Source: Escherichia coli
GTDB lineage: Bacteria > Pseudomonadota > Gammaproteobacteria > Enterobacterales > Enterobacteriaceae
DNA: 64,000 nucleotides
Direction: 5' to 3' (one strand)
NCBI RefSeq assembly: GCF_050920415.1
Contig: NZ_CP169309.1
Below are positions 38,780-40,777 of the stretch, piece after piece; position 1 is the stretch's first letter, and the number at the start of each line of letters is the position of its first letter. The notes below the pieces were generated by a model, which saw only the letters and a program-made list of their open reading frames with translations, did not search any database and was not told where the DNA came from. Both the position numbers and the translations under genes were made by a program.

Positions 38780-39717
38780 GCGTTCGTCCTCTCTGCAATA
38801 CGCAGAACTGAACTACGGGCACGAGGGTTCTCAGCCACCTCTTCTTCGCCCGGCATTAACTTGCCTAGTGCTCGCAGCTGACGGCCACCCAGTTTTTTGA
38901 GTTGCTCTTCAGTCATCGGTAACCCTGCCGGAACTTGCGGACCACGGCTGTTTTCACGCATAAAGCGTTTCACAATGCGGTCTTCCAGCGAGTGGAAGCT
39001 GATGATCGAGAGCCGCCCCCCCGGGGCCAGCACGTTGAGCGAGCTTTTTAGCGCCTGCTCTATCTCCTCCAGTTCACTGTTTACCCAAATGCGCACCGCC
39101 TGGAAGGTACGGGTCGCGGGATGTTTAAACTTATCTTTCACCGGCGTTGCGGCAGCCACGACTTCCGCCAGTTCTTTGGTGCGGGTCATCGGCTGTTCGC
39201 GGTTTCGCTCGACAATGGCGCGGGCAATGCGTTTGGCAAAACGCTCTTCACCATAGGTTTTCAATACCCAGGCGATATCGGCTTCTTCTGCGGTTTGTAG
39301 CCATTCAGCGGCTGACTGCCCACGGGTTGGGTCCATACGCATGTCCAGCGGACCATCGCGCATAAAGGAAAAGCCGCGTTCAGCATCATCAAGTTGCGGT
39401 GAAGAGACGCCAAGATCGAGGAGAATGCCGTCGATCTTGCCGATAAGATCGCGCTCGGCAACGTATTCGCCCAGCGCGGAGAAAGGTCCGTGGATGATGG
39501 AGAAGCGCGGATCATCAATAGTCTTCGCAACGGCGATAGCCTGCGGGTCGCGATCGATCGCCAGCAAACGCCCCTCTTCGCCAAGCTGCGAGAGGATCAG
39601 ACGTGAGTGACCACCGCGACCAAAAGTCCCATCAATGTAGATGCCATCAGGACGGATATTGAGGCCATTAACGGCTTCATCCAGCAGCACCGTAGTATGT
39701 TTATAGTTTTCCATCAT
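38776..39717 (-). CDS. rsmH: 16S rRNA m4C1402 methyltransferase
   Basis: ORF 38776..39846; start taken at internal ATG 39717 ([16 protein letters not shown].., 313 aa). Confidence 0.94.
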
Positions 39718-39718
39718 T

Positions 39719-40177
39719 TTATAGAGACAAGTCCTGCAGTCGCTCCGATAAGTCTCCAGTAGCCAACTGCTCTGCGTCGATATCTTCCTTGACCTGTTGA
39801 TGCCAGGTTGTTTCATCCCACAGCTCAAACTTGTTGAACTGTCCAACCAGCATCACTTCTTTTGTCAGACCGGCATGTTGCCGCAGTACTGGCGCGATTA
39901 ACAATCGACCGGCGCCATCCATCTGACATTCGCTGGCATGACCTAACAGAAGGCGCTGCACACGGCGCTCAACCGGGTTCATGCTCGACAGACGCGATAA
40001 TTTTTGCTCGATAATTTCCCATTCAGGCAGGGGGTAAAGCAGCAGGCACGGGTGATGAATGTCAATGGTGCAAACCATTTGACCGGCAGCGTTCTCAAGC
40101 AGCTGTTCCCGATAACGGGTAGGCACTGATAAGCGCCCTTTGCTGTCGAGATTGACTAACGTTGCTCCCCGGAACAT
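39719..40177 (-). CDS. mraZ: Transcriptional regulator MraZ
   Basis: ORF 39719..40213; start taken at ATG 40177 ([19 protein letters not shown].., 152 aa) with AAGGGGTGAGG ribosome-binding site upstream. Confidence 0.93.
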
Positions 40178-40196
40178 GCCAGCCTCACCCCTTATT

Positions 40197-40221
40197 CCCA
40201 CTTTGCCCCACAATTTCCCAC
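40197..40221 (-). promoter_or_regulatory. MraZ operator / Pmra region: three GTGGG direct repeats at 10-bp spacing
   Basis: Minus strand reads GTGGGaaattGTGGGgcaaaGTGGG directly upstream of the mraZ ribosome-binding site. Confidence 0.7.
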
Positions 40222-40734
40222 TGAAAGGAGTTTACGGAGCGGAGGAAAAGCTTGTCAAGCCAGTCACAAGGCATACCGAGGTAAAAAACCCGATGTTTAC
40301 GGCTAATATCAGCGTTGTTTATTTTACGTCCAACGTGCGAAGCAAATTAACGTTATGAATAGCTGTAAGAAAAAATCCCTCATGGTCATCACCGTTTTAA
40401 AATGACTAACTATTTTCCACAGCAAATATAAAGTGTCAGTTTGCGACGCGAGCGGCATTTTAGGACATATCTTCCCCGGTTAACAGTCCCTGTTGCGTCT
40501 GTGTGGCGCTTGATGCCAGCAGGTTTGCGCAAAAGCAAAGAAAAGTGTTTGTTAAATCGGCAATTCATCTCTGCATGTAACAAAATAATGCAAAAACGCT
40601 CTGTCAATATTGCTTAATTATTGTGAATTTCAGCAGGTGAGTTAATTAATGGGCGGGTTTAAAAGCATTTATCAATAATAGCCAGGAATAGTCTTATTTA
40701 CTTTAAGGATATTGATGTCCATTCCCGTACTCGA

Positions 40735-40771
40735 CGCGCCAATGAGAAATTCACTGGCGCGTATTTTTGTT
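40735..40771 (+). terminator. Terminator-like hairpin plus U-run oriented on the + strand, abutting the cra stop
   Basis: CGCGCCAaTGA-gaaat-TCACTGGCGCG followed by TATTTTTGTT on the + strand; in the cra (minus) direction the hairpin is followed by GTCGAG, not U. Confidence 0.45.
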
Positions 40772-40777
40772 CGCGGC

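Follow-up and report, generated by a model that had tools for sequence, protein, structure and literature searches.

Efficient hairpin-driven transcript release by the RNA polymerase of E. coli normally needs a U-rich RNA:DNA hybrid. A class of 3' ends that form without such a tract was described by Dar and Sorek in 2018 (PMC6061677), who located 143 of 144 Rho-dependent 3' termini just past stable stem-loops that lack U-rich tails. The stems of this class protect against the exonucleases PNPase and RNase II, the sequence downstream of them is enriched in C over G, and the termini are reported to have no upstream A-tract; as the same study makes clear, steady-state 3' ends cannot tell termination from trimming. 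Another related structure is the bidirectional terminator between mog and satP, for which the TRS table (RNAtag-seq/Term-seq, PMC10687069) shows an upstream A-run, a hairpin and no U-tract on the mog side, and yet a 'Primary' 3' end.

We analyzed a stretch of 64,000 nucleotides of E. coli DNA (hereafter, the window), in which a hairpin follows the cra gene. Like the protective stem-loops of Dar and Sorek, the cra hairpin combines a stable stem-loop with a precise 3' end a few nucleotides further on and no U-rich tail; it likewise belongs to a lowly expressed regulatory gene and is followed by an untranslated region, in which C exceeds G only beyond the first stretch downstream. It differs from this class by its upstream A-tract, and at cra the participation of Rho and of trimming is a step that we infer. 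The comparison with mog/satP is similarly mixed: both structures are flanked by an A-run and, on the opposite side, by a T-run, and in both the A-run, U-less strand still has a primary 3' end, but the cra hairpin has no known convergent unit and its 3' ends have been mapped for a single strand. Finally, the cra hairpin resembles a canonical intrinsic terminator in being GC-rich and placed directly behind the stop codon, and in several other genera it has a U-tract as well, whereas in Escherichia the U-tract is missing from the cra strand (2/8 U) and is present only on the opposite one. Taken as a whole, the best explanation, which we consider fairly probable, is that 40735..40761 (- strand) is the 3'-end-defining stem-loop of a monocistronic cra mRNA, a U-less structure that would block 3' exonucleases as described for Rho-dependent transcripts.

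Genomic context of the cra hairpin

The gene order on the - strand of the window is ilvI > ilvH > cra > 600-bp spacer > mraZ > rsmH > ftsL, and the K-12 orientation is the inverse of the window orientation. The cra (fruR) coding sequence (40778..41782, - strand, 334 aa) was taken from the list of open reading frames and ends with a stop codon at 40778-40780; it matches the annotated cra of NZ_CP169399 at 100% and K-12 b0080 at 99.7%. The mraZ coding sequence (39719..40177, - strand) is supported by the same list and by the annotation of related genomes. Over positions 40100-40900 the window is 100% identical to E. coli MFDS1022581 and ~97% identical to most of the 5,423 complete genomes. The spacer between the two genes contains zero annotated features in K-12 or in the identical strain MFDS1022581.

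Since mraZ and cra are both encoded on the - strand, the mraZ promoter points away from cra. The original prediction had pictured a + strand RNA that runs divergently from the mraZ promoter region, which was based on the wrong gene orientation: cra and mraZ are co-directional, and such an RNA would be antisense.

On the other side of cra, the PGAP annotation of the identical strain contains a 28-aa 'hypothetical protein' (WP_032160836.1) between ilvH and cra, at window positions ~41864-41950 (- strand). It overlaps the ilvH terminator hairpin (41937-41915) and does not appear in the K-12 annotation.

Structure of the hairpin and its two tails

The hairpin is a GC-rich stem-loop with a stem of 11-12 bp and a 5-nt loop, as defined by its sequence, folding, the K-12 3' ends and a comparison of 82 loci. 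Read on the + strand, its arms are CGCGCCAATGA (40735-40745) and TCACTGGCGCG (40751-40761), which enclose the loop GAAAT (40746-40750). The adjacent positions 40762..40771 form an A-run on the cra strand (AACAAAAATA), that is, a T/U-run on the + strand (TATTTTTGTT), which is separated from the cra stop codon by 6 nt (40772-40777). Owing to this T-run, the hairpin turns a canonical terminator face to the spacer. Read in the cra direction, the sequence after the stem is TCGAGTACGG.

When folded as the - strand, the sequence forms a perfect 11-12 bp stem with one G.U pair, and the bare hairpin has an energy of -18.3 kcal/mol. The G.U position becomes an A.C mismatch on the + strand, where the energy is -14.4 kcal/mol. 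The Z-scores of the hairpin range from -2.5 to -3.3 in comparison with dinucleotide shuffles. The + strand tail UAUUUUUG contains 6/8 T and has a T-score of 3.2, which is comparable to that of the neighbouring ilvH terminator (4.3), and this strand therefore presents the stem-loop and the U-tract of an intrinsic terminator despite one A.C mismatch. The cra-strand tail UCGAGUAC, with 2/8 T and a T-score of 1.0, falls short of the U-rich tract of an intrinsic terminator; the cra strand does possess the stable GC-rich stem-loop and, by homology to K-12, the mapped 3' end. Directly 5' of the stem on the cra strand lies AACAAAAAUA, with 6-7 A among the last 8 nt. A simple terminator scan flagged the hairpin on neither strand, because of the mismatch on the + strand and the absence of a T-run on the - strand. 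Sequence, folding and tail scores thus confirm the structural part of the original prediction, namely a near-perfect 11-bp stem with a T-run on the + strand and no U-tract towards cra.

The 3' end of the cra mRNA

In K-12, the orthologous hairpin occupies positions 89,049-89,076. The TRS data (PMC10687069) contain a + strand 3' terminus at 89,081/89,082 that is labelled 'Primary cra' in several datasets, with R of 0.70-0.885 and adjusted p-values that extend from ~1e-24 to non-significant (some libraries, weakest dataset). For this terminus the table records a hairpin energy of -19.3 kcal/mol and no U-run longer than 1. SMRT-Cappable-seq (PMC6131387) recovered a full-length primary 5'-triphosphate transcript from 87,968 to 89,082 that covers b0080 only, and the cra TSS was independently placed at 87,969 by Cappable-seq in K-12. 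By pairwise alignment to K-12 89,081/89,082, the cra mRNA 3' end of this strain is expected from homology at 40729..40730 (- strand), which puts the mapped end (40730/29) 3-5 nt past the stem. Hence cra transcripts run from the cra promoter to 3-5 nt past the stem, as shown in K-12 and transferred to the window by homology; the rare hairpin allele of the window, described below, counts against this transfer. A cra 3' end is absent from the Term-seq lists of Adams 2021; its peak is thus not strong in all datasets.

These maps support the proposal that the hairpin is a weak or unconventional cra terminator, in that the K-12 cra RNA ends at the hairpin according to both TRS and SMRT-Cappable-seq; the mechanism by which the end is formed is what we infer below. 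As a cra 3' end, the hairpin is nothing unusual, and public 3'-end datasets already contain it. Being the ordinary gene-end structure of cra, it gives no indication of a hidden gene on the opposite strand.

Probable mechanism of 3'-end formation

Because the cra strand lacks a U-tract, the hairpin is most likely no classical intrinsic terminator. The class of termini described by Dar and Sorek favours termination downstream, followed by trimming to the stem. RNA polymerase would probably be released slightly downstream of the hairpin, within the AT-rich, untranslated spacer. The likely release factor is Rho, since C exceeds G 40-120 nt downstream: the C:G ratio is 18:8 (2.25) in 40694-40615, and C/G is 1.5 in 40654-40575. 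Trimming by 3'-to-5' exonucleases as far as the stable stem would follow and produce a precise and stable 3' end. Two features speak against this scheme, namely the lack of a C excess in the first 80 nt downstream (C/G 1.08) and the upstream A-tract, which Escherichia retains. A promoter located ~60 nt downstream (TSS 40668) could be an alternative contributor, by roadblock or collision.

The bicyclomycin (Rho) table of Adams 2021 has no entry at cra. The lack of a listed bicyclomycin-dependent region counts against a role of Rho and is in favour of the main rival, a direct, unconventional intrinsic termination, in which the very stable 11-12 bp GC stem would free RNA polymerase without a U-tract, perhaps aided by NusA/NusG or the conserved tail GAGUACG, and the mapped 3' end would be the true termination point. 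The 3' end is indeed precise and only 3-5 nt from the stem, the TRS signal of 0.80-0.885 implies that most transcripts end there, and the GAGTACG tail is invariant across Escherichia. Moreover, in many other genera the orthologous hairpin carries a U-tract and is a normal terminator, suggesting that termination at this position is ancestral. Nevertheless, we regard direct termination as unlikely: a tail with 2/8 U and a T-score of 1.0 is at odds with the established dependence of E. coli RNA polymerase on a U-rich hybrid, and steady-state 3' ends fit trimming equally well.

Under the preferred explanation, release in the spacer and trimming to the stem, the T-run on the + strand, the complement of the A-run in the cra 3' UTR, would have at most a secondary job. 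This job may be to stop weak + strand transcription of the AT-rich spacer before its antisense entry into cra.

Possible transcription on the opposite strand

The original prediction had also considered an unannotated + strand transcript that ends at ~40,770. No K-12 minus-strand 3' end (the window + strand) at 8903x-8904x was found in the thresholded TRS, Adams 2021 Term-seq and SMRT-Cappable-seq tables, and this part of the prediction was not borne out. In the TRS tables, whose rows are consecutive by coordinate, there are zero K-12 minus-strand 3' ends from ~83.5 kb to 91 kb. Two observations had been named in advance as speaking against the + strand RNA, and both were essentially made: although the hairpin has no U-tract towards cra, the cra transcripts end at it, and the tables, as far as their thresholds reach, contain no + strand 3' end. 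Overall, the original interpretation is partly supported.

A possible source of + strand transcription is a symmetric -10 element at 40674..40680, recognized from Cappable-seq and from the geometry of bidirectional promoters. On the - strand it reads TATTAT (40680-40675) and serves the mapped TSS 40668 (Cappable-seq K-12 89,143 (+)); on the + strand it reads AATAAT (40674-40679) and could give a predicted TSS near 40686. In the two hexamers, positions 2 and 6 pair with one another, and the ATAAT core is invariant in five Escherichia sequences. According to Warman et al., bidirectional promoters with an 18-bp offset account for ~19% of E. coli TSSs, and the symmetric -10 has exactly this arrangement. 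From the predicted TSS to the T-run one can draw a hypothetical RNA of ~88 nt (40686..40772, + strand), which is suggested by the terminator face, the symmetric -10 and a conserved block; the 3'-end tables give it no support. An Rfam scan of 39700-41900 at E<=10 returned chance-level matches only, among them the single match of the hypothetical RNA, to Spot_42 (E=9.6), whose 15.6 bits are far below the gathering score of 80.

These elements could be combined into a bidirectional or collision terminator, in which a weak + strand transcript starting at the predicted site (~40686) ends at ~40772, and converging polymerases help to stop cra. In this reading, the + strand face would insulate cra from antisense transcription. 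The + face is of terminator grade (-14.4 kcal/mol, 6/8 T, T-score 3.2), the -10 of the mapped - strand TSS 40668 overlaps the + strand AATAAT, and the A-run and the block 40674-40730 are conserved across Escherichia while the neighbouring sequence has diverged. In addition, collision-driven hairpin terminators that are unlike intrinsic ones (the class of Ju et al. 2019) are described for E. coli. On balance we consider the collision reading, the lesser of the rivals, quite improbable. The + strand 3' end is missing from the thresholded tables of three studies, a convergent gene is annotated neither in K-12 nor in the identical strain, no -35 can be recognised in the + strand promoter (8/12), the Rfam match is not significant, and the stem in the window is weaker on the + strand. 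Within the thresholded tables no transcript reads into the + face and ends there, which would be compatible with a rare or conditional RNA; the 3' ends on both strands that mark a bidirectional terminator of convergent units were not found.

A two-faced insulator, whose U-less face ends the cra mRNA and whose canonical face ends a short Escherichia-specific + strand RNA (~88 nt) started from the other side of the symmetric -10, is likewise quite improbable. If true, it would mean a new sRNA or an antisense-insulating transcript beside the global regulator cra, and converging polymerases could be the reason that cra transcription stops with no U-tract present.

Conservation of the hairpin in Enterobacteriaceae

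We fetched 82 Enterobacteriaceae loci with Cra as the query. For the best hairpin found no more than 80 nt from the cra stop, the median energy is -17.75 kcal/mol, and a value of <= -10 is reached in 81 of the 82 loci, as compared with -6.25 kcal/mol for spacer-internal controls and -7.1 kcal/mol for shuffles. The position of the hairpin is kept between genera; its sequence is not, nor are all of the hairpins homologous in sequence. Atlantibacter, Kosakonia, Phytobacter, Cedecea, Franconibacter and some Enterobacter have a textbook terminator with the U-tract in the cra direction, often with an upstream A-run, and U-poor tails stand behind the cra hairpin in Salmonella, Klebsiella and Kluyvera. 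The sequence GCGCCAG...CTGGCGC is common to Escherichia (E. coli, sp. MOD1, albertii, whittamii and sp. E1V33) and to part of Citrobacter.

The positional conservation bears on another explanation, that the hairpin is a chance or mobile (REP-like) palindrome without a role in transcription. Such an origin might account for hairpin sequences that vary by genus and for the REP-like GCCGGATAAGGCG after cra in C. koseri. However, the position is kept in 81/82 loci with energies far beyond those of the controls, the hairpin has no similarity to the REP consensus, and it is present in one copy at one place per genome in the 5,423 E. coli genomes. Contradicted also by the mapped 3' ends, this explanation was rejected as scarcely credible.

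Escherichia has lost the U-tract and retains the upstream A-run. An A-run of at least 4 is retained in the E. coli strains, sp. MOD1, albertii, whittamii and sp. E1V33, though the other 3' UTR sequence diverges, and the tail GAGTACG is invariant across the genus. The stem is paired in 96% of cells of the alignment, and a single compensatory change, from C-G to U-A, occurs in E. whittamii. Covariation in the Escherichia hairpin is indistinguishable from that in shuffles, there being too little variation, and the support therefore rests on positional conservation.

When the best hairpin was picked independently for each strand, the sense-strand hairpin was the more stable one in 59 loci and that of the other strand in 21, an asymmetry that fits selection on the cra RNA. 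The pattern in Escherichia is mixed: 4/6 favour the sense strand, and K-12 and sp. MOD1 slightly favour the other.

The hairpin allele of the window (upper stem GUGA/UCAU) is rare, as only 18 of the 5,423 genomes have at least 99% identity over the 75 bp of 40716-40790. Most complete E. coli genomes are 90-95% identical over 40716-40790, versus ~97% over the surrounding 800 bp. The top of the hairpin is thus a local divergence hotspot in which pairing is preserved; relative to K-12, the stem of the window allele is preserved and even longer.

Two loci have unusual sequence arrangements behind cra. In E. coli 23CRST031, an IS1 is inserted 3 nt past the stem (equivalent to window ~40731), leaving the hairpin intact and displacing the downstream spacer; it provides a natural variant that parts the hairpin from its usual downstream sequence. 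In Citrobacter koseri, a REP-like GCCGGATAAGGCGG...GCCGCCATCTGGCA within the first ~90 nt after cra replaces the simple hairpin of its relatives.

The cra-mraZ intergenic region

The non-coding spacer (40178..40777, - strand) was characterized by TSS mapping, ORF conservation and locus comparison. As originally described, it is long and holds only short ORFs: its 600 bp make it the largest gap between co-directional genes in the window, where a crude median gap is 42 bp, and none of the short ORFs is conserved. The spacer measures 557-733 bp in all 77 loci in which mraZ was found. The ORF 40410..40607 that had been singled out does exist, with 65 aa and a TTG start according to the ORF list. 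As candidates for a hidden protein gene, the seven short ORFs including 40410..40607 were rejected, for none is intact across genera. A hydrophobic peptide (..FFLQLFITLICFARWT) over the second conserved block described below was rejected as well: its start codon is missing in 25 of 72 loci with the anchor motif and its length is variable, so that the similarity is merely DNA conservation.

Four TSS equivalents in the spacer are directed towards mraZ (- strand), at 40668 (K-12 89,143), 40574 (89,237), 40451 (89,360) and 40221 (89,590, Pmra). The Cappable-seq signal is 27 for Pmra and 9.4, 6.2 and 2.1 for the three upstream starts. The E. coli Pmra, with a leader of 38 nt, is the accepted main promoter; given the three upstream TSSs, the dcw operon may have long alternative leaders of up to ~490 nt. 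In the window, Pmra (TTGACA-18-TAAACT, 40258-40229) and three TGGGN MraZ operator repeats together occupy 40195..40258 (- strand), as supported by a promoter scan, ~100% conservation and the TSS at 40221. We take the TGGGN repeats to be MraZ boxes in the established sense (Eraso et al. 2014). An intergenic 3' end equivalent lies at 40331 (K-12 89,480; TRS).

Conservation of the spacer is blockwise. Besides Pmra there are two near-invariant blocks, which equal it in conservation with 92-99% identity across 77 Enterobacteriaceae. The first (40430..40470, - strand; 97-99% over the 77 Enterobacteriaceae) contains a -10 TAAAAT and the TSS equivalent of K-12 89,360, and the second (40340..40375, - strand; TTTTTTCTTACA..TATTCATAACGTTAATTTGC, ~92%) is situated just upstream of the K-12 89,480 3' end equivalent. 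The interval that spans both blocks is of near-constant length (133-138 nt). For the candidate transcript 40452-40318 (- strand), RNAalifold with 63 sequences yielded zero consensus pairs; with no shared RNA structure, the blocks look like DNA-level regulatory sites or promoters. Inspection of the conserved blocks by eye for sigma-54, sigma-28 and LacI-family/Cra-operator motifs gave partial matches only. The spacer, its blocks and its upstream starts are unnamed in the main text of the literature searched.

A further motif, ATTnRGATnAtTCC (e.g., TTAGGATAATTCC and TTAAGATTATTCC), occurs ~60-90 nt past the cra stop in most genera (window 40685-40700; loci L007-L082 of the comparison). It is partly palindromic and includes a -10-like GATAAT on the cra strand.

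The closest described counterpart of the spacer, as distinct from the hairpin, is found in Rhodobacter sphaeroides, where the dcw cluster has an extended leader with the 5'-UTR-derived sRNA UpsM (PMC5089854). The two have in common a long conserved non-coding region before mraZ, which in K-12 includes the upstream TSSs and the internal 3' end 89,480. They differ in that there is no sequence relationship between them, and that the E. coli internal 3' end has no terminator hairpin.

Biological significance

The hairpin itself brings little new biology, as the 3' end mapped at it belongs to a well-studied gene and the structure falls into a described class of U-less 3' stem-loops. It does give reason for caution in scans that rely on sequence only, where the true end of the adjacent gene can be a hairpin with its T-run on the "wrong" side; the orientation of a T-run alone does not predict a hidden transcript. 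The spacer is of modest value in its own right, since near-invariant blocks and three mapped upstream starts precede an essential division and cell-wall operon. Of modest value, too, is the comparison across the family, which shows a gene-end hairpin that stays in place as its sequence and U-tract turn over.
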